This document shows, one piece after another, positions 9,092 through 37,615 of a DNA stretch of 44,635 nucleotides. The stretch spans positions 1 to 44,635 of the forward strand of contig SDNY01000014.1 in the NCBI GenBank assembly GCA_004524535.1, read 5' to 3'. The DNA is from Promethearchaeota archaeon. Lineage in GTDB: Archaea; Asgardarchaeota; Lokiarchaeia; Sigyniarchaeales; SOKP01. Below the pieces are notes generated by a model. That model was not told the origin of the DNA and did no database searches. It was given only the letters and a program-made list of their open reading frames with translations. A program made the position numbers and the translations under genes. Each line of letters opens with the position of its first letter. Within the stretch, counting starts at the first letter, position 1.

Positions 9092-9232
9092 TTAGTTCAG
9101 TTTTACAAACATATTCTTGTTGCATTTACATCGAGGACAGCGCCATTCTTTCTCATCTACATCTTCAAAACATTGCTTTTGCTCATCATCAATGTATAAA
9201 TAATTGCAACGTTTACATCTATATTTTGGAAT
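9092..9232 (-). CDS. Rubredoxin-like protein (46 aa) with apparent ATT start; absent from ORF track
   Basis: (I)PKYRCKRCNYLYIDDEQKQCFEDVDEKEWRCPRCKCNKNMFVKLN. GGAGGT at 9246-9241; in-frame TAA three codons upstream; no ATG/GTG/TTG available. Confidence 0.8.
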   Translation of the reverse strand: MPKYRCKRCNYLYIDDEQKQCFEDVDEKEWRCPRCKCNKNMFVKLN

Positions 9233-9249
9233 TATTCCTTACCTCCATT

Positions 9250-10605
9250 TTATTCTTCAGGGGGTTGCCTTTGAAAATCATCTTTACAATTCCCACATTT
9301 GCATTTCCAATCCTCGGGCAAGTCTTTATATAATAAATCTTGTTTTGCCTCATCATAAACATATCCACATCCTTCACATTTCCATTTATATATGCCAACA
9401 GCCTTGCGTAGCTCATCTTCTTGAATCTCCGAATCCATATTCTTGTTAACATATGGGATGGCCTTTTTTTCCCCAAATAAGATTGCTCCTTTAAGTTTAT
9501 TATCTTTAAGGATAATTTTTTTATAACAATTCCCTTTCTTATCTACAGCTTTCAGAATTTCCCATCCTGCTCCTACTTGATCAATATCTTCGGGATCGAA
9601 CACTCCTACTGAAGTTAAATCGATTCCAACTATCTTAAGTGTATTTTTTGGTACAGTACCATGATATTCTATAGTTTTCTTACCAAGCACTGAAGCGGCA
9701 ATTATTTTAGATTGTTCTATACATGCGGGAATAATACCCCAAGTTTGATTATTAAATTCAATGCAGTCGCCAATAGCATAAACATCCTCTACACTTGTCT
9801 CTAAATATTTATTTACTATAATTCCTCGATTAGTTTCCAATCCTGCCTGTCTTGCTAAGTCTAGGGTTGCTCTAATTCCAGCTTGAATCAACACTATTTC
9901 TGCCTCAAATTCACGTCCATCTTTTAATTTAATTCCTTTTACTTTCTCGTCTCCAAGAATCTCTTCTGTAGCGGCGCTAAGAACAACCTTAATTCCCATA
10001 TCCTCAATAACTTTTTCTAACATTCCTCCGCAATCGACATCTAGTTGTCTTGGTAAGAGCCTCGGGAAAAACTCCACAACAGTAGTGTCTAATCCACAAT
10101 TTTTTATCTGTTTAGCAAGTTCAAGACCTAATAAACCGCCTCCAATAATGATCGCTTTTGAAACCTTATTTTTATCGATATATTCTTTTATTTCTAAAGC
10201 ATTATCAATATTTCTTAATGTAAAAACTCCTTTACCAATCATTTCATTTGCATTCTTAATTTGAGGAATATTTGGCATGCTACCTGTTGCGATAATTAAT
10301 TTATCATACTCAATCGGCTCACTCTCTCCCTCAAAGAACACATGCTTATGTTCAGGATGAATTCTGTTTATTTTCTTACCTAAAGTGGTCTTTATATTCT
10401 TCGTGTTATACCATTCTTGTTTAAATACAATCAGATCCTCAATAGTTACTTGCTCAGAAATCAATTCCGGAAGTTTAATTCGGGTATAATAGAGATATTT
10501 TTCAAGAGAATATATCTCGATCTCCGCCTCTTTATCAAGCATGCGAATGTTTTGAGCCGAAAAAGTTCCCGCCACATTATTTCCTATAATTACAACTTTC
10601 ATCAT
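9250..10605 (-). CDS. FAD-dependent NAD(P)H oxidoreductase (NirB/NROR family) with C-terminal rubredoxin domain
   Basis: VVIIGNNVAG, IIATGS, IIGGGLLGLE and YAIGD motifs; C-terminal WKCEGCGYVYD...LPEDWKCKCG. Confidence 0.9.
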   Translation of the reverse strand: MMKVVIIGNNVAGTFSAQNIRMLDKEAEIEIYSLEKYLYYTRIKLPELISEQVTIEDLIVFKQEWYNTKNIKTTLGKKINRIHPEHKHVFFEGESEPIEYDKLIIATGSMPNIPQIKNANEMIGKGVFTLRNIDNALEIKEYIDKNKVSKAIIIGGGLLGLELAKQIKNCGLDTTVVEFFPRLLPRQLDVDCGGMLEKVIEDMGIKVVLSAATEEILGDEKVKGIKLKDGREFEAEIVLIQAGIRATLDLARQAGLETNRGIIVNKYLETSVEDVYAIGDCIEFNNQTWGIIPACIEQSKIIAASVLGKKTIEYHGTVPKNTLKIVGIDLTSVGVFDPEDIDQVGAGWEILKAVDKKGNCYKKIILKDNKLKGAILFGEKKAIPYVNKNMDSEIQEDELRKAVGIYKWKCEGCGYVYDEAKQDLLYKDLPEDWKCKCGNCKDDFQRQPPEE

Positions 10606-10654
10606 TTTTTAATGGTTTTTTTAATATTTTAAAGTTTTTATTATAAGTTCTAAA

Positions 10655-10670
10655 TTTGAACATGTTCGAA
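10655..10670. promoter_or_regulatory. Palindromic operator TTTGAACATGTTCGAA
   Basis: Perfect core GAACATGTTC at 10658-10667 between the divergent oxidoreductase and cooS-like genes; the same core recurs at 14581 and 15022. Confidence 0.75.
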
Positions 10671-10776
10671 TAAGGTTTTAAAATAGATATAAAATATATG
10701 CTATTTAGTTTATAAGAACTATATTTATAAACTTAGTTTTCCTAAAGAATTAAAACAAATAAAGGTTTGAAGAAAA

Positions 10777-12681
10777 ATGGAAGGAGAAAGAATTTCATAT
10801 CATAAATCGGTACAAAAAGTCTATGAACGTATAAAAAAAGATGGTATGATTAATATCTGGGATCGGTTTGAAGCTCAAGGATTTGGTGGTGATCCTGATA
10901 AAAGATGTCCATTCTGCTTGAAGGGTGCTAGATGTGATTTATGCTCTAATGGTCCTTGTCGAGCAGATGTATCTATTGATAAGCGAGGGGTCTGTGGAAT
11001 CACAGCGGATGGTATGGCTATGCGGATGATGCTTCTAAGAAACGTAATGGGTACTTCCACATATCATTATCACACAGAAACTACACTAAAAACGTTAAAA
11101 GCGACAATTGAAGGAAAAACTCCGTTTAAAATCAGTGAACCGCAAAAATTAAAAAGTTTTGCAAATCGATTAGGGTTAGATACTTCTGGTTCGGATAATG
11201 ATATTGCTTTAAGATTATATAATGCTGTTAAGGAAGATTTCAATAGACCTTTTGATGAGCCCAGCAAGATTGTTGAAGCTTTAGCACCTAAAGAAAGACA
11301 GGAGGTATGGAAAAAAATTAGAATTTATCCTGGCGGTCTTTATGGTGAAATGATGTTCTCTACAAGTTCATGTTTGACGAATGTAGATGGATACTATGCA
11401 AGCTTAGCCTTAAAAGCAATGCGATTAGGAATCGCTATGGCATATCAAAGTCAAATTGTCAATGAATTTATTCAAGATATTCTTTTTAATGTTCCAAGAC
11501 CTCATAAAATGCGGGTAAATCTTGGTGTATTGGATCCTGATTATGTTAATATTATACCCAATGGACATGAACCGTTCCTTGGATTTGCAATGGTTCAATT
11601 GGCAAGAAAGCCTGAATGGCAAGAGAAAGCGAAAGCGGTTGGTGCTAAAGGCCTTCGAATTATCGCTAATATTGAAACTGGACAGGAAATGATTCAGAGA
11701 TGGGAGATGGACGATGTTTTCTATGGTTTTACGGGAAATTGGATAATGCAAGAAGCAGTTCTTGCAAGCGGATGTATTGATGCATTTGTATGCGATATGA
11801 ATTGTTCAATGCCAATCGATCCACTTTATGCTGAAAAATACAAGTTCAAATTAATTCCCGTATCAGAAGTGGTTGCCTTTGAAGGAATTGATGAAAGACT
11901 TGATTATATCCCTGAAAAAGCAGAAGAACAAGCAGCAACATTGCTTCAAATGGCAATTGATAATTTTAAAGATCGCCATGCAAGCATAGAACCTGTAATA
12001 GGATTAGATATGAATGAGGCTGTAGTTGGCTTTTCTACGGAAAGTATCGTTGAAGCATTAGGTGGATCCTTAACACCTCTTCTTGACGCAATAAAAGATG
12101 GTACTATAAGAGGCGTTGCGGGACTTGTTTCTTGTACAAGTCTTAGAGATAAGGGTCAAGATGTACATACTGTTGCTGTAGCTAAAGAATTAATTAAAAG
12201 AGATGTCTTGGTGCTGTCTATGGGATGTGGAAATGGGGGAGTACAAGTCGCAGGATTATGTTCTCCAGAAGCAAAAGATTTAGCAGGACCTGGTCTCAAG
12301 GCTCTTTGCGAAAAATTGGGCACACCTCCAGTCCTAAGTTATGGAACATGTACGGATACAGGACGGGTGGCTGATCTCATTGCCGCTGTTTCAGATGCAC
12401 TTGGAGGTGTTCCAATCCCTGATTTGCCTGTTGTTGCTGTCGCACCAGAATATATGGAGCAAAAAGCAACTATTGATGCGATTTTTGCCCTCGCGTTTGG
12501 ACTTTACACCTATGTGAATCCTGTTCCTACGGTTACAGGAGGACCAGATTTAGTCAAATTATTAACTGTTGACTGTAAAGATGTTACTGGTGGAATATTA
12601 CATGTTGAAACTGATACGATTCAAGCTGTTGATGCAATGTTAGAACACATTGAAGCAAATCGTAAGAAGTTGGGATTATGA
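10777..12681 (+). CDS. cooS: CO dehydrogenase (CooS)/HCP superfamily protein, CooS-V-like atypical active site
   Basis: CPFC D-cluster motif; B-cluster CDLCSNGPC...VCG; NGHEP, IETGQE, VSCTS, MGCG, YGTCTD and EQKA at the C-cluster-equivalent positions. Confidence 0.88.
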   Translation: MEGERISYHKSVQKVYERIKKDGMINIWDRFEAQGFGGDPDKRCPFCLKGARCDLCSNGPCRADVSIDKRGVCGITADGMAMRMMLLRNVMGTSTYHYHTETTLKTLKATIEGKTPFKISEPQKLKSFANRLGLDTSGSDNDIALRLYNAVKEDFNRPFDEPSKIVEALAPKERQEVWKKIRIYPGGLYGEMMFSTSSCLTNVDGYYASLALKAMRLGIAMAYQSQIVNEFIQDILFNVPRPHKMRVNLGVLDPDYVNIIPNGHEPFLGFAMVQLARKPEWQEKAKAVGAKGLRIIANIETGQEMIQRWEMDDVFYGFTGNWIMQEAVLASGCIDAFVCDMNCSMPIDPLYAEKYKFKLIPVSEVVAFEGIDERLDYIPEKAEEQAATLLQMAIDNFKDRHASIEPVIGLDMNEAVVGFSTESIVEALGGSLTPLLDAIKDGTIRGVAGLVSCTSLRDKGQDVHTVAVAKELIKRDVLVLSMGCGNGGVQVAGLCSPEAKDLAGPGLKALCEKLGTPPVLSYGTCTDTGRVADLIAAVSDALGGVPIPDLPVVAVAPEYMEQKATIDAIFALAFGLYTYVNPVPTVTGGPDLVKLLTVDCKDVTGGILHVETDTIQAVDAMLEHIEANRKKLGL

Positions 12682-12715
12682 TTTATAATTTTACTAATGT
12701 ATTGAGGGAAAAGAA

Positions 12716-13033
12716 ATGGAAGTAGCTTCTATTAAAAATCTGAATAGTTTGATTGAATATCAAGAGAAGTCAGTTGTGAGTAAAACTTTAATCGATAAGA
12801 AAGTTGGTACTGTCACCCTTTTTGCTTTTGATAAAGATCAAGGATTAAGCGAACATACAACTCCTTTTGATGCACTTGTTTACATTTTTGATGGTGAAGC
12901 AGAAATTACAATTAGTGGCAAACCATACCATCTTAAAAAAGATCAAATGCTTATTATGCCCGCAAATGATCCTCACGCACTCAGAGCAATAGAGAAATAT
13001 AAAATGATGCTCATAATGATTAAATCTGATTAA
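12716..13033 (+). CDS. Cupin domain protein
   Basis: TLFAFDKDQGLSEHT...DGEAEITI...MPANDPHAL. Confidence 0.9.
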   Translation: MEVASIKNLNSLIEYQEKSVVSKTLIDKKVGTVTLFAFDKDQGLSEHTTPFDALVYIFDGEAEITISGKPYHLKKDQMLIMPANDPHALRAIEKYKMMLIMIKSD

Positions 13034-13066
13034 AATTGAACTTTTTTCGTATTTAAATTTGGGTAA

Positions 13067-13077
13067 TTTTTTTTTTT
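13067..13077 (+). terminator. Oligo-T terminator after cooS-cupin operon
   Basis: T11 run 33 nt after the cupin stop. Confidence 0.5.
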
Positions 13078-13094
13078 AATTTAATTTCTTAATC

Positions 13095-13106
13095 TTAACA
13101 TGTTAA
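13095..13106. promoter_or_regulatory. Variant palindrome TTAACATGTTAA upstream of second dfx
   Basis: Perfect 12-bp palindrome sharing the AACATGTT core; centre about 45 nt upstream of the ATG, as for the 15022 site. Confidence 0.5.
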
Positions 13107-13145
13107 AAAGAAAAGTGAGGATTAATAAAATAAAGAGGTGTCAAT

Positions 13146-13520
13146 ATGGTAAAAGAAGTTTATAAATGTAATAACTGCGGGACGGTCCTTTTCGCTACTG
13201 CTGACTATATAGAGTGTTGTAAACAAGAAATGAAGTTATTAGAACCAAAAACAGCAGATTGGAAAGGTGAAAAACATGTTCCAAAGATTACAATTGATGG
13301 CAATAACGTAACTGTTGATGTTGGAATCAGTATGGGAGCGCCACACCCAATGACCCCTGAACACTCGATTCAATGGATTAACTTAATAGGTAATGACTTC
13401 TACGAAAAGAAAAATTTAAAACCGGGGGATGAACCAAAAGCAACATTCGTAGTTGCGAATACAGACGGACTTTGGGCACGGGAATATTGTAATCTCCATG
13501 GTTTATGGAAGTCATCTTAA
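13146..13520 (+). CDS. dfx: Desulfoferrodoxin (superoxide reductase), second copy
   Basis: CNNCG...CCKQEM, EKHVP, HPMTPEH and YCNLHGLW motifs; GAGGTG RBS. Confidence 0.93.
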   Translation: MVKEVYKCNNCGTVLFATADYIECCKQEMKLLEPKTADWKGEKHVPKITIDGNNVTVDVGISMGAPHPMTPEHSIQWINLIGNDFYEKKNLKPGDEPKATFVVANTDGLWAREYCNLHGLWKSS

Positions 13521-13527
13521 AACTAAA

Positions 13528-13541
13528 TTTTTTTTTTTTTT
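13528..13541 (+). terminator. Oligo-T terminator after second dfx
   Basis: T14 run 7 nt after the stop codon. Confidence 0.6.
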
Positions 13542-13664
13542 AATCTTATTTCTTAACCTAAATTTTTAGGCTTAAACAACCTTCTTGGAATTAAATTATA
13601 GAATTGTTCAGTATAATTCTTGACTTTTTTATTTATTTTTAGATCTCCATTTAAGAGTTTTTAT

Positions 13665-14510
13665 TCATTTTTTTTGTAATTTTATTGCATCTACGGGACA
13701 AATATCTACACACCTATTACAATAATAACACTCCCCCTTAGAACTATTCTTGTAGCTTTCTTGTGTAGGGCAAATTTTTTCACATAAACCACAATCAGTG
13801 CAAGCTTCTGTTCGACAGTATTTTAACTTACTAAATCGACTTGTAAATCCAGCTAAAGCGCCAAATGGACAAAGTAATCTACACCAAGGTCTATATATAA
13901 AAATACTCAAAACCATTACTGAAATTAACGAAATTAACGGAATTAAGAGCACCATTGCTAAAGGATCTCGGAAAAACGAATATCCTACAAAGGGGTTGAG
14001 TAATTGTAATAAAGCAATATTCCACACTACTATTATTAAAATTACAACTGCAAAAAACGACCATCTAATGATTCTTGCAGTTTTCTCTGATATATCTATT
14101 TTAAACTTTATATTCTTTTGTCCCTTGATACTTGATTTAAATTTTATTTTTGATATTAACTCTTGAACCGCACCAACAGGACAAGCATATCCACAAAATA
14201 TCCGACCAAAGACTAATGTTGTTAATAGTAAGATAATTAATACAATAATCATTGGGATAAGAGAGGTTATAATAGCATTTCCTCCAAGAGCACTCAAAAT
14301 TTGCTGAATTGGCATAACTACATTTGGGATTCCCCCTAATATTATGCCTCCTATGATAATTGATATTAAGTAGATTATTATACTTTTTTTCTTAGTAATC
14401 TTTTGCTTATAAATTAAAACTATAGCTAATGCACTGATAACTATCCAAAATATAAACATTGGTAAAGCAGTTATCATATTTAGTTGCGTGGTGTTATTTT
14501 GATTTATCAT
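13665..14510 (-). CDS. Membrane 4Fe-4S protein (NapH/MauN/FixG-like)
   Basis: Transmembrane segments with GRIFCGYACP and RPWCRLLCP; two CxxCxxCxxxCP motifs. Start set at ATG 14510, 5 nt after AGGAGTGA. Confidence 0.85.
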   Translation of the reverse strand: MINQNNTTQLNMITALPMFIFWIVISALAIVLIYKQKITKKKSIIIYLISIIIGGIILGGIPNVVMPIQQILSALGGNAIITSLIPMIIVLIILLLTTLVFGRIFCGYACPVGAVQELISKIKFKSSIKGQKNIKFKIDISEKTARIIRWSFFAVVILIIVVWNIALLQLLNPFVGYSFFRDPLAMVLLIPLISLISVMVLSIFIYRPWCRLLCPFGALAGFTSRFSKLKYCRTEACTDCGLCEKICPTQESYKNSSKGECYYCNRCVDICPVDAIKLQKK

Positions 14511-14577
14511 AAACATCACTCCTTTTATTTTATATTTCTTTAATTAAACTAAAAAAAATAGCTAATATATAGTTTAA

Positions 14578-14590
14578 TTTGAACATGTTC
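14578..14590. promoter_or_regulatory. Palindromic operator TTTGAACATGTTC
   Basis: Core GAACATGTTC at 14581-14590 in a divergent intergenic region. Confidence 0.72.
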
Positions 14591-14642
14591 TTGTTTAATA
14601 ATAAATTATAAGGAAGGTTATTATTTTATAAATATATTTAAA

Positions 14643-14993
14643 ATGGTGATAATCATTAAAATTATTAATGTTGATGAAGTAGATATTGCGGACACTCCCC
14701 ACAAAGTAGATGTAAGAAAATTAATTTCATATGAACATGCTACTATTGTTCGCATTGAGTTAAAACCAGGAGAGGCATTAAAAATGCATGTTACTCCTGT
14801 TGATGTTTGTTTTTTCATTTTGGAGGGTGAGGGAATAGTACAAATTGGGAAAGAAAAAGAAATTGTCAAAAAAAACAAGCTTATTTTTAGTCCTGCGAAA
14901 ATACCACACACGTTAATGAATGAATCAGATGCCAATTTCAGTTTTTTAGTATTAAAAACTCCCACACCTACAAGTGAAACAAAAATGCTTTAA
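14643..14993 (+). CDS. Cupin domain protein
   Basis: LKPGEALKMHVTP...ILEGEG...SPAKIPHTL. Start is either ATG 14643 or ATT 14655 (5 nt after GGTGA). Confidence 0.88.
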   Translation: MVIIIKIINVDEVDIADTPHKVDVRKLISYEHATIVRIELKPGEALKMHVTPVDVCFFILEGEGIVQIGKEKEIVKKNKLIFSPAKIPHTLMNESDANFSFLVLKTPTPTSETKML

Positions 14994-15019
14994 TCATTTT
15001 TTTCCATTTTTTTTTTTAA

Positions 15020-15033
15020 TTGAACATGTTCGA
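15020..15033. promoter_or_regulatory. Palindromic operator TTGAACATGTTCGA
   Basis: Core at 15022-15031, just after a T11 terminator and 39 nt before the ATG at 15071. Confidence 0.75.
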
Positions 15034-15070
15034 GAGTAAAAATAAATGATGTTCTCACTATTTTTCAAAT

Positions 15071-15835
15071 ATGACTGAAGCAAAGCAAGTAAAAAAAGTC
15101 GTAAGAAAGATAATCGAAATTGATGAGGATTTATGTACTGGATGTGGGAAATGTGTGACCTCGTGCGCAGAAGGAGCTTTAGCAATTATCGATGGAAAGG
15201 CGAAAGTTATAAATGATGTCTTCTGTGATGGTCTGGGAGCTTGTATCGGGGAATGCCCTGAAGATGCATTAAGAATAATTGAACGAGAAGCAGCAGAATT
15301 CGATGAGGAGGCTGTGGAAGAATATTTAGAAAAGCTTAAAGAAAATAAATCATCAATCCAACAATCTACACACTCTCACCAATGCAATTGTCCTTCTTCT
15401 CAGCCAATGGTGTTTGAGGGTAAATGGGAAGAAACCGAAATCACAGGAGATATTCCATCTGCATTGAGACAATGGCCAACAAAACTAACTTTAGTTAATC
15501 CCAACGCACCATACTTCAATAATAAGGAATTAGTAATCGCCTCAGATTGTTCGCCGTTTGCCTATGGTGATTTTCACAGAAAAATCTTGAGAGGGAAGCC
15601 ATTGGTAACAGTCTGCCCCATGTTAGGTCTTGGAGAAGTCGAGTTGGAAAAATTGGAGCAGATATTGAAATTGAATCCTATTGAAAACATTCAGCTGGTG
15701 TTAATGGAAGTTCCTTGCTGTCAAAAAATTAATATGTTTTTGGATCCGATATTGCAAACGATTGGCCGTAAGATATTTGTTGAGAAGACCATAATTGGTA
15801 GAGATGGTTCAATTATTAAAAGCCAGAATGGCTAA
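15071..15835 (+). CDS. 4Fe-4S dicluster protein with Cys-containing C-terminal domain (type often found beside hcp)
   Basis: CTGCGKCVTSC and CDGLGACIGECP; SALRQWP, ASDC, VCP and MEVPCC motifs. Confidence 0.85.
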   Translation: MTEAKQVKKVVRKIIEIDEDLCTGCGKCVTSCAEGALAIIDGKAKVINDVFCDGLGACIGECPEDALRIIEREAAEFDEEAVEEYLEKLKENKSSIQQSTHSHQCNCPSSQPMVFEGKWEETEITGDIPSALRQWPTKLTLVNPNAPYFNNKELVIASDCSPFAYGDFHRKILRGKPLVTVCPMLGLGEVELEKLEQILKLNPIENIQLVLMEVPCCQKINMFLDPILQTIGRKIFVEKTIIGRDGSIIKSQNG

Positions 15836-16485
15836 ATTTTCAAGACAACCTTTTTTTTAATAATTTTTCTTAGCATAACTGATAAGGCAGATTTAGATTT
15901 TCCCAATTCATTAGCTAATTCTTCTAAGGAGATTTTTCGAGGAACTTCAAAAAATCCTGAATTAATTGCTTTTTCTAAAATTTTATCTTCCTCAAAACTT
16001 AATTTAGAACTAGGATCATCAATCTCATAAGGAGAATTACCAATTCTTAATAATTCAAAATCAATTCCTTTATTCTCAAAAAGAGTTAATAATTCATCAA
16101 TTCTTTTCCTCGTTGAAATTAGCTTCCAATAAGCATAGCCCTCCTTGACCTTAACCGGGAAATTTACTAAAACTCCGTATTTTATTACTCCATACAACAA
16201 ATATGGATCTTTTGTTTTCACATTAATTTTAACTTTATTTTCTTCTTTTTCTAAAATACTGAATTCAAAAACTGACCTGTGATTTCTAATTTCTTTAATA
16301 ATTGAATTAATATCATAATGCATTATTTCAACAATGGCATTTCCAATCGATTTTTCTAAATCATATGGTAAAAAATATAAAATTTCCATCTTTACATCAT
16401 GAAATTGACTAAATATATTAGAAAACCATAAATCGACAGGAAACTTGATTTTAATTCTTGCTAAACTTGTTTTATTTGAATCCAT
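15832..16485 (-). CDS. HTH_10 (Bat-like) transcriptional regulator
   Basis: C-terminal LSFEEDKILEKAINSGFFEVPRKISLEELANELGKSKSALSVMLRK. Confidence 0.88.
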   Translation of the reverse strand: MDSNKTSLARIKIKFPVDLWFSNIFSQFHDVKMEILYFLPYDLEKSIGNAIVEIMHYDINSIIKEIRNHRSVFEFSILEKEENKVKINVKTKDPYLLYGVIKYGVLVNFPVKVKEGYAYWKLISTRKRIDELLTLFENKGIDFELLRIGNSPYEIDDPSSKLSFEEDKILEKAINSGFFEVPRKISLEELANELGKSKSALSVMLRKIIKKKVVLKI

Positions 16486-16585
16486 TTTCAATGATAATTA
16501 AGATAGATTTATGAATTTAAGTTATTTTAGTTTTAAATAATTTTTAATAATTAATAATAAATAGATAGGTGTTCCTTCTATTATT

Positions 16586-17185
16586 ATGGTAGAAAATGAT
16601 AATCTACTATTAGGTATATGTGGAAGTCCAAGAAATCAAGGAACTGAATTTGCTGTTGAATATGCATTGGATTATGCTGCAAAAAAATTTGGATTTGAAA
16701 CTGAATTTTGGACAGTGAGAGGAAAGACAATAAAATTCTGCGTCCATTGCGATTATTGCATTCGTGAGAAAAAAGGGTGTATGCAGGTTGATAATTTAGC
16801 GGAGCTCTACCCTATTTTAGAAAAAGCAAAATTTTTACTATTTGGAACACCAATATTTCAAGGTAATTTATCAGGACAACTAAAAACCATTATGGATAGA
16901 TGTAGAGCATTAGTTGCGAAAAATTCAGAAGTATTTAAAAATAAGGTCGGAGCAGCTTTGGCGGTTGGGGGGGATCGAAATGGTGGTCAAGAAATTGCGA
17001 TTAGATCAATCTTAGATTTTTATCAACAGAATCATATAATTTGCGTCTCTGGAGGTGCCTTTGGAGCTAATTTAGGTGCCTCATTATGGACCAAGGATCT
17101 AGGTAAAAAAGGCGTTGAACAGGACGAGGAGGGTTTAAAAGGTATTAGAAAAGTTGTTAAAAGACTTGCTGAATTCAAGAAATAA
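16586..17185 (+). CDS. Iron-sulfur flavoprotein (Isf, flavodoxin-like)
   Basis: GSPRNQGT; compact CVHCDYC-x6-C motif; GTPIF, MDR and GGDRNGGQE. Confidence 0.9.
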   Translation: MVENDNLLLGICGSPRNQGTEFAVEYALDYAAKKFGFETEFWTVRGKTIKFCVHCDYCIREKKGCMQVDNLAELYPILEKAKFLLFGTPIFQGNLSGQLKTIMDRCRALVAKNSEVFKNKVGAALAVGGDRNGGQEIAIRSILDFYQQNHIICVSGGAFGANLGASLWTKDLGKKGVEQDEEGLKGIRKVVKRLAEFKK

Positions 17186-17202
17186 ATAAAAAAAGAAGAT
17201 AA

Positions 17203-17514
17203 TTATGCCTTCAATTTGAATAAATCTTTAAATATTTTTTGAGCTTCTTTCTTCCGGAAACCAGAAATACCCCATAATTCTTTAAACCAATATTTTCCTT
17301 TCCACATTATAACTGGTGTATTTACAACACATCCTTCTTTATCACAAAACATTCCTACAAAATTAGGGTCATTTAATAATTGTTGTACAAATTCCTCATC
17401 GTCAATGTCTTTCTCGACATAGGGAAGCTCATTTTCCTTCATCCATGCTTTAAATTCTTTACAATGCGAGCAGCCCTCTTTTGTAATCACAATAGGTAAT
17501 TGAATATCTGACAT
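17203..17514 (-). CDS. Glutaredoxin-like protein
   Basis: TKEGCSHC...Y.EKDI...TPVI; has a third Cys (FCDKEGC region) insert. Confidence 0.75.
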   Translation of the reverse strand: MSDIQLPIVITKEGCSHCKEFKAWMKENELPYVEKDIDDEEFVQQLLNDPNFVGMFCDKEGCVVNTPVIMWKGKYWFKELWGISGFRKKEAQKIFKDLFKLKA

Positions 17515-17708
17515 ATTACTATTATTAATAAAAGAAATAAAAAACTTTTATCTTCTAACTTATAAATAGAAGAAATTAATTTCATAATAAAGATAATATT
17601 GACATACTCGTGTCGTAAAAGAATTAAAATCTAATTTAAAAAATAATGTGATATAAAATGAAAAAAACCTATAAATCTAAGGAAAATATATAGAAGTATC
17701 CGGGTAAA

Positions 17709-17894
17709 TTAGGTAAAACACTGTTCTTCAGAACATTTAGAGCATAAAATCTCGTCTAAACTCACATATCCACATTCTGGCCCCATAAAACATTCCCATT
17801 GGTTCTTTTTCTCATTAAAAATCATATCCTTCCCACAATGCTCTGGAATTGTTTCAATCCTAGTTCCACATTTAGAACATTTTATCTTTTTCAT
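17709..17894 (-). CDS. Small Cys-rich metal-binding protein
   Basis: CSKC...HCGKDM...C-x5-CG...CSKC; AGGAGG RBS; ATG at 17894. Confidence 0.75.
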   Translation of the reverse strand: MKKIKCSKCGTRIETIPEHCGKDMIFNEKKNQWECFMGPECGYVSLDEILCSKCSEEQCFT

Positions 17895-18185
17895 AATCAA
17901 CCTCCTTAATTTTCTAAGAAAAATATGAGTTACAATGATAAATACTTACCTATTTAGATTTATTGATCAAACAGAATAAGAGATTAAAAATATTAGAAAT
18001 TCTCTTTTTTCTTATAATAAAATATAAACAATATTTGCTGTTATTTGTTTAAGCCTTATTTAATTCAGATTAAAAAATATTAATTCTTTCAAGAGATCTA
18101 TTTTAGATTTAATTGAAATTCTCAACAAAATCTATAAAATATAAACAATAAGTTATAATGGCTAAAGTCTCTAATATTACTCAAT

Positions 18186-18647
18186 ATGGATTATAAAACT
18201 CAAAATAAAGAATATGAAACTGCCATACAAACTCTATTACGAGGGCAATCTTGGAATGAGAGGGCAGATGCAGCAAGACAATTAGGGAAATTTCAAGACG
18301 CAAGAGCAACTAATATTTTAGCTAGAGCTTTAAATTCAGAAAAAGATGAAATTGTTATCAATCAAATTATTGAAGCGATGGGCAAAATAAAGGATGCTAA
18401 GGCTACAATGCTAATCATTGATTTTTTAAAGAAAGAATTAGAACTCCCAGAAGAAAAACAAAATAAGAATAGATTGTTTTTAATTATAGAAAGTTTGATG
18501 AAGATTGGAGACAAAAGAGCCCTAGAACATTTAGGTGTATTATTTAATTCTTGCTATACTGATATTAGAGAATTAACTGAACAAGCCTTTCAATGTATTG
18601 ATCCTAATTGGAAGGAAAATCTCAAAAATATAAAGAATAATAAATAA
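18186..18647 (+). CDS. HEAT/PBS-lyase repeat protein
   Basis: Repeats RADAARQLGKFQDARA, IIEAMGKIKDAKA and IIESLMKIGDKRA. Confidence 0.82.
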   Translation: MDYKTQNKEYETAIQTLLRGQSWNERADAARQLGKFQDARATNILARALNSEKDEIVINQIIEAMGKIKDAKATMLIIDFLKKELELPEEKQNKNRLFLIIESLMKIGDKRALEHLGVLFNSCYTDIRELTEQAFQCIDPNWKENLKNIKNNK

Positions 18648-18693
18648 TTGTATTAATTAAAAATAAGAAATCTCAAAAAAAGGATAAAAGCAA

Positions 18694-19011
18694 ATGTCGG
18701 ATAAAGAGTTAATTGCAACCTTAAATACGAAAGTAGAGGGCGAGAATAAGTCAAAAGATATCCAAATTTTCACGCTCTCAACTTGCATGTGGTGTAAGAA
18801 AACAAAGCGTTACTTAAACGATAATGATGTAGAATATAGTTACATTGATATGGATAAGATTCAATATGCTCAAAAGAAGCAAATTTTAGATTTTCTTAAG
18901 GCAACATATAAGGAAAGAATATCCTATCCATTTCTCATTTGTGATGGTAAGGCTATAGTGGGATATAATCCTGAAAAATATGATAAAATGCTAAAATCTG
19001 GAGCTGATTAA
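18694..19011 (+). CDS. Glutaredoxin/NrdH-like redoxin
   Basis: TLSTCMWCKKTK...SYP...IVGY. Confidence 0.88.
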   Translation: MSDKELIATLNTKVEGENKSKDIQIFTLSTCMWCKKTKRYLNDNDVEYSYIDMDKIQYAQKKQILDFLKATYKERISYPFLICDGKAIVGYNPEKYDKMLKSGAD

Positions 19012-19012
19012 A

Positions 19013-19378
19013 ATGAATATGGAAACAAAAGAAGGAATGATTGAATATTGTAAGATGGTTTGTAAGAAAAATAACTGGATTTTAAATAAGGACGAAGTAA
19101 TATTCAATGATTTAATTGATGGATTAGTTTCTAATAAAAAAGAGTATGGTTATCAATCTTGTCCTTGTCGACTTGCATCGGGTAACAGAGACCTTGATAG
19201 AGATTTAATATGTCCTTGTGACTATGCCCCTCCTGATGTAAAAGAATTTAAAGCGTGTTATTGTAACTTATATTTGCATCCAGATTTTTATGACAGTGGG
19301 GTAGTATATGTCTTAGTTCCAGAGAGAAGACCTGAAGATAAGGATAAAGGATTATTAGATTATTTTAGTCAACAATAA
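19013..19378 (+). CDS. Ferredoxin:thioredoxin reductase catalytic subunit-like
   Basis: YGYQSCPCR, ICPC and ACYC.LY motifs; directly follows the redoxin. Confidence 0.9.
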   Translation: MNMETKEGMIEYCKMVCKKNNWILNKDEVIFNDLIDGLVSNKKEYGYQSCPCRLASGNRDLDRDLICPCDYAPPDVKEFKACYCNLYLHPDFYDSGVVYVLVPERRPEDKDKGLLDYFSQQ

Positions 19379-19432
19379 GATTAATATTTTATAATCTTAA
19401 TTTTTTAATACTTTACTTTCTCATTGTTAATT

Positions 19433-19588
19433 ATGACTGATAAAGATTTAACTGATCAAGAATTAGAAGAAGAGCTTGATAAGGCTTTTAAAGAAAATGA
19501 GACTAAGAGAGATCAATGTGGTACGGCACTTCCCGGTTCTAGAGAAGTTGGAGTTCAACGAGATAATGTAAAACTAAAAAAGAAATAA
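19433..19588 (+). CDS. Small hypothetical protein (51 aa; absent from ORF track)
   Basis: MTDKDLTDQELEEELDKAFKENETKRDQCGTALPGSREVGVQRDNVKLKKK; coding-like composition, followed by a T-run. Confidence 0.55.
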   Translation: MTDKDLTDQELEEELDKAFKENETKRDQCGTALPGSREVGVQRDNVKLKKK

Positions 19589-19662
19589 TTCTTTTTTTTC
19601 TCTATTTTAATTTTTCATGATTTCATATGCTTTTACATGCTATATTCCAAAATTTATACTTT

Positions 19663-19806
19663 TTAATCTAAGATTTTTAATTTACTCTTTGCTCCAATTG
19701 CGTTAAATTCACTAAGGTTTGCCTTTATATCTTTACCAATTAGAGCATTAACAATACTTGCAGCCAATATATCCCAGAAACATATTGAATAAATAATCTT
19801 ATTCAC
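19663..19806 (-). pseudogene. Probable gene remnant (47 codons)
   Basis: Open frame VNKIIYSICFWDILAASIVNALIGKDIKANLSEFNAIGAKSKLKILD reads like a protein C-terminus; no clear RBS. Confidence 0.35.
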
Positions 19807-19950
19807 GATTTTTTAAATCTGTTATTTAATAATTTGAAATTTTTTTCGAATTATATTTAAGTATATTGATTAAAACCAATATATTTTAATAGGACTAGAA
19901 ATTTGTAGATAAAGATATGTATTAATTAATTTTAAAAGGTGAAAGAATAA

Positions 19951-23914: not shown

Positions 23915-23927
23915 TGCGAAATTTTTA

Positions 23928-24779
23928 TTACAGAAGTTTTGGGACATCCCAAGGCAAATCTGCAATAAGAGCTCCAGCATCCTTAAGTGCTTTTATCTTC
24001 CCTTGAGCAGTTCCAAAACTGCCTGATGATATAATTGCACCAGCATGACCCATCCTTTTACCCTCCGGAGCACTTTTTCCAGCAATATAAGCTATGACTG
24101 GTTTAGAGACGTGATCTTTTATATATTCGGCAGTTTTTTCTTCCTCATTACTTCCAATTTCGCCTATAAGAACGATTTTTTTAGTATTAGAATCATTAGA
24201 ATAATACTCTACAGCTTCAACCATCGTTTTTCCTCGTACAGAATCTCCCCCAATACCAATATAAGCAGATACTCCAATTCCTGCATTTCCTATAGCTTTT
24301 GTAATTTCATAAGAAAGTGTTCCACTTTTAGATATAACTGCAACATTCCCATAATGACACATATCACTCGGCATAATACCTAATTTGATTTTATCAGGAA
24401 TCATCATACCAGGGCAATTAGGGCCGACAATGTCTAGTTTCCCTTCATGAGCGATTTCCAGGAGTTTTATCATATCCAAAACAGGCACATTTTCTGTGAT
24501 AATACAAACTAATTTTATTCCGGCATATAAACTTTCTTTAGTAGCTTCAAATGCAAATCTAGCAGGAACGAACATAATACTTATATCGCAACCTGTTTCA
24601 TCAACAGCATCTTTCACACTATTAAATACTGGAACACCATGTATTTTTTGTCCCCCTTTTTTTGGCACAACACCCGCCACGATGTTAGTTCCATAATCTA
24701 ACATCAATTTTGTATGGAATGCCCCTTGGTTTCCAGTTATACCTTGAACAAGCACTTTTGAGTTTTCACTGATATTCAT
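23928..24779 (-). CDS. sucD: Succinyl-CoA ligase alpha subunit
   Basis: VQGITG, GPNCPG, SKSGTLSYE and phospho-His motif RMGHAGA. Confidence 0.96.
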   Translation of the reverse strand: MNISENSKVLVQGITGNQGAFHTKLMLDYGTNIVAGVVPKKGGQKIHGVPVFNSVKDAVDETGCDISIMFVPARFAFEATKESLYAGIKLVCIITENVPVLDMIKLLEIAHEGKLDIVGPNCPGMMIPDKIKLGIMPSDMCHYGNVAVISKSGTLSYEITKAIGNAGIGVSAYIGIGGDSVRGKTMVEAVEYYSNDSNTKKIVLIGEIGSNEEEKTAEYIKDHVSKPVIAYIAGKSAPEGKRMGHAGAIISSGSFGTAQGKIKALKDAGALIADLPWDVPKLL

Positions 24780-25901
24780 TTAAGCTAAGACCTCCTTTAC
24801 CTTATTTACAGCGTCCATAACATCTTTAAAAACATTAATTCCTTCATTTTTTAAAAGTTCGATCCCTTCAGCTTCATTAGTCCCAATCAACCGGATTACT
24901 ATTGGAGGTGCTTCAGTAAAATCCTTTAGAGCTTGAATTATAGCTTCTGCGACAATATCACAACGAGTAATTCCCCCAAAAATATTAATAAGCACACATC
25001 GTGGTTTTAATTTAAAAATTAAATCAAGAGCTTTATAAACCCTCTCTTTGCTTGCGCCACCTCCAACATCTAAAAAATTTGCGGGTTTTAAATCTAATTG
25101 AGACAGAACATCTAACAATGCCATAGTCAAACCCGCGCCATTAGCTAAAATTCCAATATCACCATCCAATTCTACAAAGGAAAATCCTGCTTCTACTGCA
25201 ATTTTTTCAAAGTCAGATAATTTTTTATCGAGGTAGTTTTGGATTATTGGCTGTCTAAATGCCGCATTATCATCAAGTATCATCTTACCATCAACAGCAA
25301 TTAAACCCTTAGGAGTTAATACAAGGGGATTTATCTCAACTAAGTGTGCTTCTATCTTTACTGTAATGTCCCATAATTTTTGAAATATTTTAATTGCCGA
25401 TTCTAAGAGATCTCCTGAAAAACCAATTTTCTCCCCAACTTCTTTAGCGATTTCATTTGTCAATCCTTCTTTATAAGAGAAATTGCTTTTAATAATTGCT
25501 TCGGGATTATTCTTAGCAACATCTTCTATATCTATCCCGCCTTCTTTACTAGCGATTAAGTAAAACTTTCTTTCAGAGGCGTCTAAAGCTATTGAACAAT
25601 AATATTCTTGCTCAATATCGGCTAATTCCTCAATTAAAATTGCTTCAACATTGAATCCCGCAACAACTCGTTTGAAATACTCTTTACATAAGAAAATTGC
25701 CTCTTCTTTAGTTCGGACAATTTTTATTAAGCCTGCTTTCTTCCTACTTCCAATAGCAATCTGAGATTTAACAATTGCTGGGAAAGAGAACTGATTTACT
25801 TTCTCACTAATATTATCGTTTTTATTAATAAGTATGCTATTTGCAAGTGGAATTCCAAACTTTCGAAACACATCCTTACTTTCATATTCAAGTAATCGAA
25901 T
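24780..25901 (-). CDS. sucC: Succinyl-CoA ligase beta subunit, apparent ATT start
   Basis: VKSQ...GSRKKAG, EINPL, NGAGL, PANFLDVGGG and NIFGGITRCD. The frame extends upstream of the track's GTG as (I)RLLEYESKDVF to the ATT at 25901, with AGGAG upstream. Confidence 0.95.
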   Translation of the reverse strand: MRLLEYESKDVFRKFGIPLANSILINKNDNISEKVNQFSFPAIVKSQIAIGSRKKAGLIKIVRTKEEAIFLCKEYFKRVVAGFNVEAILIEELADIEQEYYCSIALDASERKFYLIASKEGGIDIEDVAKNNPEAIIKSNFSYKEGLTNEIAKEVGEKIGFSGDLLESAIKIFQKLWDITVKIEAHLVEINPLVLTPKGLIAVDGKMILDDNAAFRQPIIQNYLDKKLSDFEKIAVEAGFSFVELDGDIGILANGAGLTMALLDVLSQLDLKPANFLDVGGGASKERVYKALDLIFKLKPRCVLINIFGGITRCDIVAEAIIQALKDFTEAPPIVIRLIGTNEAEGIELLKNEGINVFKDVMDAVNKVKEVLA

Positions 25902-26088
25902 ATTTAACGTCTCCTAAATTGAATTAAATATTTAATTTTATGTTCTAACATATAATTAAAATTCATTGAATTATATATTTCTAATAGATTATAATTGCCA
26001 CATCTTAAATAATAAATGACTTATTGAAACATAAATTAATATAGATTAAAAAAATTAAAGATAAATTTTTGTAAAGGTTTTCATTGAA

Positions 26089-27282
26089 ATGAGCGAAAAG
26101 ATTGAAAAAGCGAAAATACATTTCGAAAATCTTATTATAGAACAATTAAAAAGAATTGAGAGATTGAAAAATGAAAGAGATTGGATTGAGTATTCAGCTC
26201 TCAAACCTATTATAATTGGTATTATTGGTGGAGATGGAATAGGGCCAATAATTTCTAAACATGCTAAAAATATTCTTCTATTTATCTTAAATGATGAAAT
26301 AAAAAATAATCAGGTTGAAATAAGAGAAATTGAAGGTTTAACAATTGAAAATAGAGCAAAAGTTATGAAAGCTATCCCTGATGACGTGCTTGAAGAAATA
26401 AAACAATGTCATGTTTTATTAAAAGGTCCTACAACAACCCCTCGAAAGGGAGATAAATGGCCAAACATAGAAAGTGCAAATGTTTCAATGCGTCGAGAAT
26501 TAGATCTTTTTGCAAATGTCCGTCCTGTAAAGGTTCCGGAAAAAAATATAGATTGGATGTTTTTTCGAGAAAATACAGAGGGTGCTTATGTACTTGGCTC
26601 AAAAGGAATTAATATAGATAATGATTTAGCCATAGATTTTAAAGTGATTACTACTCAAGGGGCTGAACGTATAATTCGTTTAGCATTTGATTATGCTAAG
26701 AAAAATAATATTAATAAAGTGACTGTTGTTACCAAAGCAAATGTTGTAAAAACGACAGATGGAAAATTTTTATCCATTGCTGAAGATATTTCTAAAGAAT
26801 ATCCTGAAGTGGATTGGGACGATTGGTATATTGATATTATGACTGCTAAATTAATTGATCCCGCACGTCAGAGTCAATTTAAAGTAATTGTTGCTCCAAA
26901 TTTATATGGTGATATAATTACAGATGAGGCAGCCCAAATGCAAGGAGGTGTTGGAACTGCGGGAAGTGCTAATATTGGAAAGCATTATGCAATGTTTGAA
27001 GCAATTCATGGATCAGCACCTCGAATGGTTGAAGAAGGAAGAGCAATTTATGCAGATCCATCAAGTTTAATAAGAGCAGTAATTATGATGTTAAATCATA
27101 TAGGTTTCCAAAAAAAAGCTAAGAAATTAGAAATGGCACTTGATATTTGTGGAATTTATGAGAAGAAAGTGGTTTTAACGGGTCGATCTAACGGGAGTAC
27201 AGGTGATGAATATTCAAAATATATAATGAACACCCTCCAAGATTCAAAATTAGAAGAAAAATGGAATAAATATCAAAATTAA
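26089..27282 (+). CDS. icd: Isocitrate/isopropylmalate dehydrogenase family, probably isocitrate dehydrogenase
   Basis: GDGIGP, LKGPTTTP, SANV.MRRELDLFANVRP, NLYGDI.TD and EAIHGSAP motifs; operon with fumC and aconitase. Confidence 0.8.
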   Translation: MSEKIEKAKIHFENLIIEQLKRIERLKNERDWIEYSALKPIIIGIIGGDGIGPIISKHAKNILLFILNDEIKNNQVEIREIEGLTIENRAKVMKAIPDDVLEEIKQCHVLLKGPTTTPRKGDKWPNIESANVSMRRELDLFANVRPVKVPEKNIDWMFFRENTEGAYVLGSKGINIDNDLAIDFKVITTQGAERIIRLAFDYAKKNNINKVTVVTKANVVKTTDGKFLSIAEDISKEYPEVDWDDWYIDIMTAKLIDPARQSQFKVIVAPNLYGDIITDEAAQMQGGVGTAGSANIGKHYAMFEAIHGSAPRMVEEGRAIYADPSSLIRAVIMMLNHIGFQKKAKKLEMALDICGIYEKKVVLTGRSNGSTGDEYSKYIMNTLQDSKLEEKWNKYQN

Positions 27283-28708: not shown

Positions 28709-28723
28709 TGTGGGTATGAAAAA

Positions 28724-35139: not shown

Positions 35140-35932
35140 ACGGTTCCTCCTCGTTAAATATTCTATCAATATAATCTTCTGGAAAACATGGCTTGCCTTC
35201 TTTATATAATGTTCTTTTGCAAAATTCTTTTAGACCTGCTTTTTTACAATATCTCAGCATAACATAGGGAAATAAATCTGTAATCAATACATCGCCATGC
35301 CAGATTAATGTTCCATAATCTGCAACCATTCCAATTTCTTCTCGATGGGTGATTAATAAGATGGTCATATTCAATTTTTTGATTTTATTAAAAATATTCA
35401 TGAAATCCTCTGTTATTATAACATCAAGTCCACTATCAGGTTCGTCCAATATGATGAGTCTCGGTTTCATAGCAACAACAGCAGCAAGTTCTATTCTTTT
35501 CCTCTCACCGCCACTTAATGAATTATCAATATAACGATTCACATATTTTTTAGAAGGTAAGTTCACTATCTCTAATGCTTCGGTGACTTTTTCTCCCAAA
35601 TTGCTTTTATCCTTTATACCAAGTGAGACATATTTCTTCACCGATAAACCTTCAATTCTGGCGGGTTCTTGCCAAGCCAATGTAATACCCATCTTTGATC
35701 GCTCTGTAATAGACATATCTGTAATATCTATTCCATCAAAATAGATTTTCCCTTGAAATGGCTTATAATTACTTAACCCCATAATTGAATAAGCTAATGT
35801 TGATTTCCCAGAACCGTTTGGACCAATAATAGCGTGAATAGAGCCTTCTCTTACATCAAATGACACATCATTGACGATAACGCATTTTTGATCGAATGTC
35901 GGGATTGTTAGATTTTTTACTTCTAAAAGCAA
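35132..35932 (-). CDS. sufC: SufC-like ABC ATPase (SmsC-like)
   Basis: GPNGSGKST, LAWQEP, LSGGERKRIE and ILDEPDSGLD motifs; three Cys in the C-terminal tail. Confidence 0.88.
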   Translation of the reverse strand: MLLEVKNLTIPTFDQKCVIVNDVSFDVREGSIHAIIGPNGSGKSTLAYSIMGLSNYKPFQGKIYFDGIDITDMSITERSKMGITLAWQEPARIEGLSVKKYVSLGIKDKSNLGEKVTEALEIVNLPSKKYVNRYIDNSLSGGERKRIELAAVVAMKPRLIILDEPDSGLDVIITEDFMNIFNKIKKLNMTILLITHREEIGMVADYGTLIWHGDVLITDLFPYVMLRYCKKAGLKEFCKRTLYKEGKPCFPEDYIDRIFNEEEPFE

Positions 35933-36221
35933 AAATAGACCCTTGGATTTGTTTATATGAAATTATTAATTAAATTGTTGTATGATATTTGATATTTAAT
36001 GATTATTCTAATATGTTAAAATAAAATCTAATTTAAGTTAAAAAATTCTCTTTAAAGAAATAACTTAAAATAACTTAATTTTTCATTTATTAATTAAATT
36101 CTTAACGTATTTATATGAAGATATCTAAAAATCAATCTTTTTTTATAATTTAAACAATAAAAATATTTTAAGAATTAATTTAAATAATACTAGTAGAAGT
36201 AAAAAAGGTGCTTATCTAAAT

Positions 36222-36911
36222 ATGTCTTATATTAAACAGCATGAAGATATTTTAAAAAATGAGATGGCAAAGTTAAAAAATGAGGTTCATATAATAGTTT
36301 TCACTGATGTTAAAGAACAAAATGGAGAGAAAGTAAGAAGATGCATGTCTTGTGATGGTACTATGAACCTATTAGAGCAACTTTCGGAGTTCTCAAATGG
36401 TAAATTGATGATAGAAGAGAAATCTATAGATATTGATGTAGATGAGGCAAAAAAATATAATGTTACAAGAATACCAACGATTCTATTCATTGATCAAGAA
36501 GAAAAAGAAGTTATTAGATATTTGGGAAATCCACTTGGTGCTGAAACAGCTCCATTTATTCAGAATCTAATATATTTCTCAGGTGTGAGAAGTTTTTATG
36601 AGGATGCAATCATAATGAATTTAAAGAATATGCAAAAATCAACATTAAAACTTTTTATAACCTTAACTTGTCCCTACTGTCCAAGTGTCGTACCAATTTC
36701 TGGTTTATTCGCAATATTATCTAGAGGGAAAATAAAGACCGAAATAATTGATGTTGATGTAAATCAAGACCTTGCAATGAAGTATCAAGTTCAAGGGGTA
36801 CCCCATGTTATGATTAATGAAGACCAACATATTTATGGTGTTTTTTCTCCTCAAGATTTATTAGATAAAATTACGAGGGGAAAATTAGATTTAGGAGGCA
36901 TGTATGCTTAA
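36222..36911 (+). CDS. Protein disulfide oxidoreductase (two thioredoxin folds)
   Basis: CMSC and TCPYCP motifs; RIPT and GVPH cis-Pro loops. Confidence 0.88.
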   Translation: MSYIKQHEDILKNEMAKLKNEVHIIVFTDVKEQNGEKVRRCMSCDGTMNLLEQLSEFSNGKLMIEEKSIDIDVDEAKKYNVTRIPTILFIDQEEKEVIRYLGNPLGAETAPFIQNLIYFSGVRSFYEDAIIMNLKNMQKSTLKLFITLTCPYCPSVVPISGLFAILSRGKIKTEIIDVDVNQDLAMKYQVQGVPHVMINEDQHIYGVFSPQDLLDKITRGKLDLGGMYA

Positions 36912-36931
36912 GAATTTACGAGGTGATTGAA

Positions 36932-37615
36932 ATTTCGTCTCAAGATCGATATAAACAAATAATTAAACGTGAAATGGCTAAATTAAAAAAAGCCGTGAAA
37001 TTAAAAGTAGTTACATGTAAAGCACGGCAACCAAACGGAAGTCAGATAAGAGAGTGTATGGATTGTGGACAATTTATGTCACTATTAAACGTTTATGAAG
37101 AGTATTCAAATGGAATGCTGAAGATTGAAGAATTATGCATAGAAGATAATCCAGAACTCGCAAAAAGATATGATATTTCTCGTGTGCCAACTATTCTTTT
37201 TTTAGATGATAACGGAAAGGAGCTAATACGATATCTCGCAGCCCCACAAGGTGGGGAAATCCAACCATTCATTCAAGCTGTTTTTGCTTTAGCAGGAGCA
37301 GGTAATTATTATGAAGCAACAATAAAACAAAATCTTGACAGAATCCCACCTTCCACGATAAAAGTTATGATAACAAACACGTGTCCATATTGCCCCCAGG
37401 TAGTTTCCGTTGCTAATCTATTTGCTCTTGCAAGTAATGGAAAAATTAGAACAGTAATCATTGATATAATGGTAAATCAAGATATTGGTCAATATTATGA
37501 TGCCGCTGGAGTACCACATACAATAATTAACGAAAAGCCAGCAATTTCAGGAATGGTTGGACCAAATGAAATTTTAAAAGCTTTAATAGGGGGAAATATT
37601 CGTGTTCAATATTGA
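36932..37615 (+). CDS. Protein disulfide oxidoreductase paralogue, apparent ATT start
   Basis: CMDC and TCPYCP motifs. The track's GTG (36923) lies inside the RBS GAGGTGA; the ATT at 36932 aligns with Met1 of the upstream paralogue. Confidence 0.86.
   Translation: MSSQDRYKQIIKREMAKLKKAVKLKVVTCKARQPNGSQIRECMDCGQFMSLLNVYEEYSNGMLKIEELCIEDNPELAKRYDISRVPTILFLDDNGKELIRYLAAPQGGEIQPFIQAVFALAGAGNYYEATIKQNLDRIPPSTIKVMITNTCPYCPQVVSVANLFALASNGKIRTVIIDIMVNQDIGQYYDAAGVPHTIINEKPAISGMVGPNEILKALIGGNIRVQY

Follow-up and report, generated by a model that had tools for sequence, protein, structure and literature searches.

Probable routine initiation at ATT and ATA codons in a Promethearchaeota archaeon, with an apparent, conserved near-cognate start at the aIF1 gene

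Introduction

In animal mitochondria, which have A+T-rich genomes, translation is initiated at AUA and AUU using a single modified tRNA-Met and no Shine-Dalgarno (SD) pairing, and NCBI translation table 11 lists ATT, ATC, ATA and CTG as alternative initiators. The closest described circuits built on poor start sites concern the factors that control initiation fidelity. According to sections of two papers, infC is autoregulated via its AUU start (PMC4705826) and eIF1 via its poor start context (PMC6237735, PMC4705826); sections of the same papers describe archaeal aIF1 as discriminating against AUU and other non-canonical starts and as blocking the binding of AUU mRNA (PMC4705826, PMC6237735). 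For Asgard archaea, a passage of a study of tubulin infers a 'rare ATT start codon' for a gene from a genome bin, preceded by a ribosome-binding site at a plausible distance (PMC13394414). In those parts of the literature on Asgard or archaeal ATT/AUU starts and aIF1 that were covered, this remark on a single gene was all we found, and no systematic report; the kind of event is known, and its scale, its lineage and a link to aIF1 appear unreported. Here we analysed a 44.6-kb stretch of DNA (hereafter the window), the entire contig C39 of the draft genome of a Promethearchaeota archaeon of the Loki-type Asgard group (3.66 Mb, 198 contigs, 30.4% G+C), which carries four genes with an ATT where a start codon is expected. 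Our data indicate that this archaeon and its family very probably use ATT (AUU), and to a smaller degree ATA (AUA), as genuine and routine start codons, and show that the aIF1 gene of the same genome lacks a canonical start codon of its own.

Results

At all four sites in the window, in a rubredoxin-like gene (9232), sucC (25901), the second of two thioredoxin-fold genes (36932) and a Cupin_2 gene (14655), an ATT lies 3′ of an SD motif and aligns with the ATG, TTG or GTG of orthologues (Table 1). A first-pass annotation of this DNA had placed ATT behind a ribosome-binding site at the homologues' Met1 in the first three of these genes, with the Cupin_2 gene as a weaker case; its coordinates are right and the orthologues agree with them. 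It had also claimed that an in-frame stop just upstream leaves no room for a canonical start in the first two, and this holds for both. The rubredoxin-like gene begins, on the minus strand, TAA(9241..9239) GGA ATA ATT(9232..9230) CCA AAA TAT AGA TGT, and no ATG, GTG or TTG was found in this frame ahead of the first CxxC; a second in-frame near-cognate codon, ATA, is located at 9235, and the protein matches Rubredoxin PF00301 with E=3.8e-4, which is below cut-off. The 5′ end of sucC, on the same strand, reads TAG(25916..25914) GAG ACG TTA AAT ATT(25901..25899) CGA, and the earliest canonical codon in the frame is a GTG at codon 11. Since residue 3 of the protein aligns with position 2 of the Pfam ATP-grasp_2 profile, the sucC ATT occupies the Met1 position.

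When orthologues were aligned, the sucC start codon was ATT at 7 of 12 loci, TTG at two, ATG at one and GTG at one, with one distant locus carrying ATG one codon later; the ATT loci belong to this genome and six other species, and in each of them an SD motif precedes the ATT and the frame is closed by a stop 0-11 codons upstream. The rubredoxin-like gene, compared at 12 loci downstream of the reductase gene, had ATT at four, ATG at six and TTG at one, and the twelfth locus has ATA plus a GTG three codons upstream. An orthologue in another genus (G009) reads TAG ACA ATT after GGAGGTG. For the 36932 gene, 17 evaluable loci gave ATT 5, ATG 8 and TTG 3, with one further locus carrying TTG one codon later, and the 16 loci of the Cupin_2 gene gave ATT 1, ATA 2, TTG 2 and ATG 11. 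The flanks have diverged among species that keep ATT at the same codon. We also compared contigs from four other sequencing runs over 9000-26500 (X2 record 1 corresponding to 9000-9788 and X3 record 16 to 25815-26277), and none of the 40 differences listed hit an ATT (922 further rows follow these 40). Two other routes into the rubredoxin-like frame were ruled out: a +1 frameshift after initiation at the ATG at 9248, which is in another frame, as the G009 orthologue has no such ATG, and stop read-through from the upstream reductase, which lies in a different frame.

For a genome-wide tally, we took every perfect 5-mer of the SD sequence complementary to the 16S rRNA, the 3′ end of which (...GGATCACCTCCT) is complementary to the SD motifs in use, and scored the codons at each aligned distance, requiring a frame open for at least 100 codons and an in-frame stop upstream without a canonical start in between. 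Non-canonical codons additionally had to lie more than 10 codons from the next canonical one, the peak was set at aligned distance 13-16, and five composition-matched codons served as controls. At the peak we counted 131 ATG, 43 TTG and 9 GTG, next to 36 ATT, 21 ATA, 2 ATC and 3 CTG, and 21 control codons together (AAT 3, TTA 3, TAT 0, AAA 5, TTT 10). ATT thus makes up about one in eight to 15% of strongly SD-led starts (36/240) and ATA about 9% (21/240). The fraction of hits falling inside the peak was 58% for ATT (36/62), 55% for ATG (131/239) and 51% for ATA, compared to 17% for the controls, and Fisher tests of peak versus off-peak hits against the controls confirmed the enrichment of ATT (p=3e-8) and ATA (p=5e-5); ATC was not significantly enriched at the peak in the same test. 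These counts support the earlier proposal of AUU as a routine or regulated start here.

Further features of the ATT peak resemble those of ATG. SD spacing was maximal at aligned distance 14-15 for ATT and 12-15 for ATG, and a small second residue (S, T, A, P or G) followed in 47% and 49% of cases, respectively, compared to 14% for the controls. Control codons were commonly followed by Ile, which indicates that they sit just upstream of ATT or ATA. A G never followed ATT at the peak (0/36), compared to 6/26 off-peak and 30.7% for internal ATT (p=4e-6). Because a G in this place would create an overlapping out-of-frame TTG, its absence is as expected if such a TTG is selected against; ATA at the peak showed no avoidance of a following G. 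One example of a probable ATA start is a GTPase frame on contig C147 (minus strand), which reads GGTGATAAGGG ATA. A looser tally per open reading frame (ORF) returned ATT 64, ATA 39, AAA 34 and AAT 31, and was kept out of the estimates because of this high background.

Protein domains provided an independent check. Sixteen of 20 ATT candidates had a match in a Pfam scan, and in 11 of them the N-terminal domain starts ahead of the first canonical codon; these include Ras and RagA-type GTPases, a B12-binding radical SAM protein, an AsnC-type regulator, an N6 methylase, a phosphodiesterase, a Fer4/CCG protein and a DUF4240 protein. The other five matched candidates were not decisive. Among 53 Ras-like P-loop frames, a canonical start lies 3-40 codons upstream in 42, and 4 belong to multidomain proteins. 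In the other 7 the P-loop is not preceded by any canonical start; 5 of these carry an SD motif with ATT, 1 an SD motif with ATA, and 1 falls in neither class.

We then tallied samples of related genomes (order ATG/TTG/GTG/ATT/ATA). A genome of the same genus (G001, 397 kb) gave 16/5/2/6/3 (ATT 6/32) and one of another genus in the same family (G015, 400 kb) 11/7/0/5/2 (ATT 5/25), both ATT shares being similar to that of this genome; two genomes from other families gave 37/3/2/4/0 (G031, 800 kb; ATT 4/46) and 10/0/0/1/0 (G049, 400 kb). ATT starts are therefore predicted throughout the order, with a seemingly higher frequency in this archaeon's family, the samples being small and related. The tally of a genome with 53% G+C (G032) was noisy, with 133 other non-canonical hits, and makes a poor comparator. 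Starts that are ATT here are ATA, TTG or ATT in the sampled relatives; one gene, for instance, has ATT in this genome and ATA in G001 (L109). An orthologue transfer test against these relatives yielded 8 ATT/ATA pairs only, too few for rates. In G031, a MazF/PemK-like frame (L093:9291, plus strand; recognised by eye) has a conserved N-terminus that needs an SD-placed ATT, which suggests that a second family of this order uses ATT starts too.

The gene for aIF1, the factor reported to reject AUU, lies outside the window. It was identified by its SUI1 domain (PF01253, 63 bits, above cut-off) and by the zinc knuckle CxxC...CxC, a feature of archaeal aIF1 described in part of PMC6237735. In this genome the aIF1 frame contains no ATG, GTG or TTG from an in-frame TGA to the zinc knuckle, and the list of canonical-start ORFs holds none of at least 60 aa at this place. 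We surveyed 80 named related genomes, a set that overlaps the order-wide set of 50 used below and is not independent of it. A canonical codon before the zinc knuckle was absent in all 79 evaluable loci. Six codons ahead of the first Cys, 77/79 loci had ATT and 2/79 ATC, followed by AAA in 79/79; the two codons 5′ of the ATT or ATC vary freely, with TAG stops in 4 loci. ATA never occurred at the start position, yet in the body of the gene 38% of the Ile codons are ATA. A conserved GGTTGTGA forms the leader, with a split, weak SD match at aligned distance 17, beyond the optimum. Order-wide, 32/50 aIF1 loci had no canonical codon. Other Asgard families contributed 20 loci: 15 had ATG or GTG, and the 5 without a canonical codon had ATA, placed at SD distance 14-15, in three families and a probable CTG in two. 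The CTG loci are L379 (G134) and L375 (G074), and relatives there have GTG.

Public protein sets reflect this start unevenly. Among the 120 aIF1-related clusters listed, 32 were full length and at least 79% identical, and the NCBI-sourced full-length entries examined begin MKDDDIC or MCPIC, meaning that annotation has already taken ATT as the start. A further 45 of the clusters listed, at 83% identity or more, cover 65-92% of the query without the N-terminus; four short entries examined (of 13 fetched) start after or within the knuckle, and a few may be contig-end fragments. One cluster (P0005), 99% identical to the aIF1 of this genome, represents a near-identical strain with TGG in place of the in-frame TGA, so that the frame extends to a TTG within the leader motif (MWKKTIKDEDIC...). 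Together with the 11 of 20 candidates whose domain precedes the canonical codon and with the missed aIF1 ORF, the 45 short clusters substantiate the earlier expectation that standard gene callers truncate or miss genes in this lineage.

The first-pass annotation had also suspected a special initiation system. A motif search returned a single initiator-type tRNA, on contig C174 (minus strand, at about index 17010 of the reverse complement), and a dedicated system thus found no support. This tRNA has the normal anticodon CAT, A1:U72 and an anticodon stem with three G:C pairs, and its anticodon arm is followed by an intron. No initiator-like stem with a non-CAT anticodon was found in an inventory of tRNAs that is incomplete: aragorn detected 9 and 12 (runs with and without introns) and Rfam 15, and the sole 'tRNA-Met' call of aragorn has a poor structure. 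Because only 9-15 tRNAs were detected in a genome that is 99% complete, most of its tRNA genes are probably interrupted.

Several arrangements around the four sites were observed besides. The rubredoxin-like gene, whose ATT follows the end of the reductase gene by 17 nt, stands in a minus-strand cluster between the reductase fusion and a downstream canonical rubredoxin with an ATG start (8158..8290). In G015 (L044), a rubredoxin has ATT CTG at the Met1 position. The 36932 gene forms a tandem with a paralogous double-thioredoxin-fold gene (36222..36911, plus strand) to which it is 46% identical; the pair is kept in many relatives, and in this genome the first gene starts with ATG and the second probably with ATT. 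At 16580-16588 (plus strand), AGGTG is followed by ATT ATT ATG, with an ATT at the optimal SD distance of 15 and the annotated-style ATG at 21, and the start of this gene is ambiguous.

Table 1. Positions of the genes discussed and of the motifs at their 5′ ends. Coordinates are those of the window unless a contig or locus is named.
Feature	Position	Strand	Start or remark
Rubredoxin-like gene, 46 codons + stop	9092..9232	-	ATT start 9232..9230
SD motif GGAGGT of rubredoxin-like gene	9246..9241	-	ATT at aligned distance 14
In-frame TAA, two codons 5′ of rubredoxin-like ATT	9239..9241	-	
NAD(P)H rubredoxin reductase with fused C-terminal rubredoxin domain (context)	9250..10605	-	ATG start
Cupin_2 gene	14655..14993	+	Probable ATT start 14655
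SD motif GGTGAT of Cupin_2 gene	14645..14650	+	
Probable sucD, directly downstream of sucC, named by position only (context)	23928..24779	-	Canonical ATG after AAGGAGGT
sucC, succinyl-CoA synthetase beta-type, ATP-grasp_2 + Ligase_CoA	24780..25901	-	ATT start 25901..25899
SD motif AGGAG 5′ of sucC	25911..25915	-	Aligned distance 13
SD motif GAGGTGAT of 36932 gene	36920..36927	+	In-frame GTG 36923 within motif
Second of two tandem thioredoxin-fold (protein-disulfide-oxidoreductase-like) genes	36932..37615	+	Probable ATT start 36932
aIF1 (SUI1), outside the window	C174:10556-10879 = L137:1501-1824	+	ATC six codons before zinc knuckle

Discussion

We propose a mechanism in which the SD sequence of the mRNA would pair with the 16S 3′ end and so bring the near-cognate codon into the P site. 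There the ordinary initiator Met-tRNA (CAU) would take the third-position mismatch, and the protein would begin with Met. The yield from such sites would, judging from published work in which aIF1 rejects AUU, depend on aIF1, and the ATT/ATC start of aIF1 itself, with its weak and distant SD match, would by analogy give a negative feedback of the infC type, rendering ATT/ATA-initiated genes sensitive to aIF1 activity. The data document where the codons lie, how they are conserved and how they are distributed genome-wide; the feedback loop, the decoding as Met and the efficiency we infer. Extended to its full form, in which AUU/AUA starts mark a large group of genes set by aIF1 and aIF1 is limited by its own AUU start, as an SD-based counterpart of the eIF1 circuit and an independent reinvention of infC control, this proposal is a tentative one, possible but rather less than probable.

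The strongest alternative accepts the starts as real and regards them as neutral by-products of A+T mutation pressure acting on a tolerant machinery, with neither an aIF1 regulon nor feedback, and we consider it quite credible, if somewhat short of probable. It fits the low G+C content and the excess of TTG over GTG at the SD peak, the free exchange of ATT, ATA, ATG and TTG among orthologues, the unrelated functions of ATT-start genes and the ATT share of Ras-like GTPases (5/53), which is about the same as elsewhere. It fits less well with the retention of the sucC ATT in 7 species and with aIF1, where ATT holds 77 of 79 loci to the exclusion of ATA and where the near-cognate codon, the split weak SD match and the long spacing are all conserved. 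Moreover, another family with a similar G+C content (31%) has a lower ATT share (4/46).

That a dedicated device decodes AUU and AUA at initiation, either another initiator tRNA besides the first or, as in animal mitochondria, a modification of C34 on the initiator, is unlikely. Both enriched codons are third-position variants, and ATC and CTG are scarce at the peak, though both are also rare codons in this genome; against this stands the one initiator-like tRNA found, with its CAT anticodon, in an incomplete tRNA detection, while a base modification would leave no trace in the DNA.

Even less probable, in our view, is that the ATT codons are coincidental and that nearby canonical codons are the real starts, namely the downstream GTG in sucC and the GTG or ATG within the SD motifs at 36923 and 14643. 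In-frame canonical codons do exist at the 36932 and Cupin_2 genes (in the latter ATG 14643 and GTG 14646, both overlapping the SD motif), and public gene callers often pick downstream canonical starts. At 36932 the ATT and the SD motif described earlier are both present, and the in-frame GTG inside that motif had gone unmentioned. However, the ATP-grasp fold of sucC would lack 10 conserved residues, and no canonical codon precedes the first CxxC of the rubredoxin-like gene. Nor would coincidence lead one to expect a genome-wide peak at the SD distance, a biased second residue or the lack of G after the ATT. Because orthologues whose aligned codon is ATG or TTG (L340, L344 and L363) nevertheless carry an in-frame GTG or ATG inside their own SD motif, the canonical codons 5′ of the ATT at 36932 and 14655 are most simply read as parts of the SD motif. 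Finally, errors of sequencing or assembly (G read as T) or decaying pseudogenes, for which the draft state of the genome in 198 contigs might speak, can practically be dismissed, since the same ATT is conserved in independently assembled other species with different neighbouring bases and intact frames.

Some observations weigh against routine ATT/ATA initiation or against its proposed dependence on aIF1. All starts were placed from the DNA, the related genomes are non-independent samples, and the tally is limited to perfect SD matches of at least 5 nt in about 240 open frames, with a background at the SD peak of 0-10 per control codon. Canonical codons 3-4 codons 5′ of the ATT, inside the SD motif, leave the 36932 and 14655 genes not strictly free of a canonical start between the in-frame stop and the conserved N-terminus. 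SD strength and length are equal for ATT and ATG genes, giving no sign of compensation at the former. The basic loop of aIF1 is the same between families (RKWG in both), so that nothing accounts for the higher ATT use in this family, and in G015, a member of the family, aIF1 could start at a GTG in its frame while ATT is about as common among the starts of that genome (5/25). The feedback at aIF1 is drawn by analogy.

If many genes start with ATT or ATA, ordinary gene finders cut them short or miss them, and callers restricted to ATG/GTG/TTG may shorten or lose something like one gene in ten in these genomes. Among those affected are aIF1, small GTPases and metabolic enzymes that figure in arguments on the origin of eukaryotes, and public protein sets already contain many truncated entries for aIF1. 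For the expression of Asgard proteins, upstream ATT/ATA starts are worth checking, as one tubulin study, in the portion that concerns us here, found by hand (PMC13394414). The apparent near-cognate start of aIF1, conserved in about 80 species and recurrent in other Asgard families, makes translational feedback directly testable in archaea; if true, the loop would give the Loki-type Asgards, which among archaea are the nearest relatives of eukaryotes, a control tied to that of eukaryotic eIF1.

In comparison with animal mitochondria, this archaeon shares AUN starts in an A+T-rich genome; in contrast to them, it has a standard archaeal initiator gene and SD pairing. With E. coli infC, as portrayed in part of PMC4705826, it shares a gene for a fidelity factor (there IF3) that itself starts at a conserved near-cognate AUU. 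Here, however, the factor is aIF1, which has the SUI1 fold and is unrelated to IF3, feedback is suggested by analogy, and AUU is not limited to one or two genes. The likeness to eukaryotic eIF1, in the sections of PMC6237735 and PMC4705826 that treat it, is closer in that eIF1 is the homologue of aIF1 and senses the weak initiation site of its mRNA, but the weakness here would lie in the codon (AUU/AUC/AUA) and in a weak, distant SD match rather than in the Kozak context, and initiation would be guided by SD pairing rather than by scanning. The ATT start of the Asgard tubulin gene is the same kind of event, treated in the relevant passage of that study as a rare exception in a single gene (PMC13394414), whereas ATT in the genome described here is frequent, conserved and statistically distinct genome-wide.

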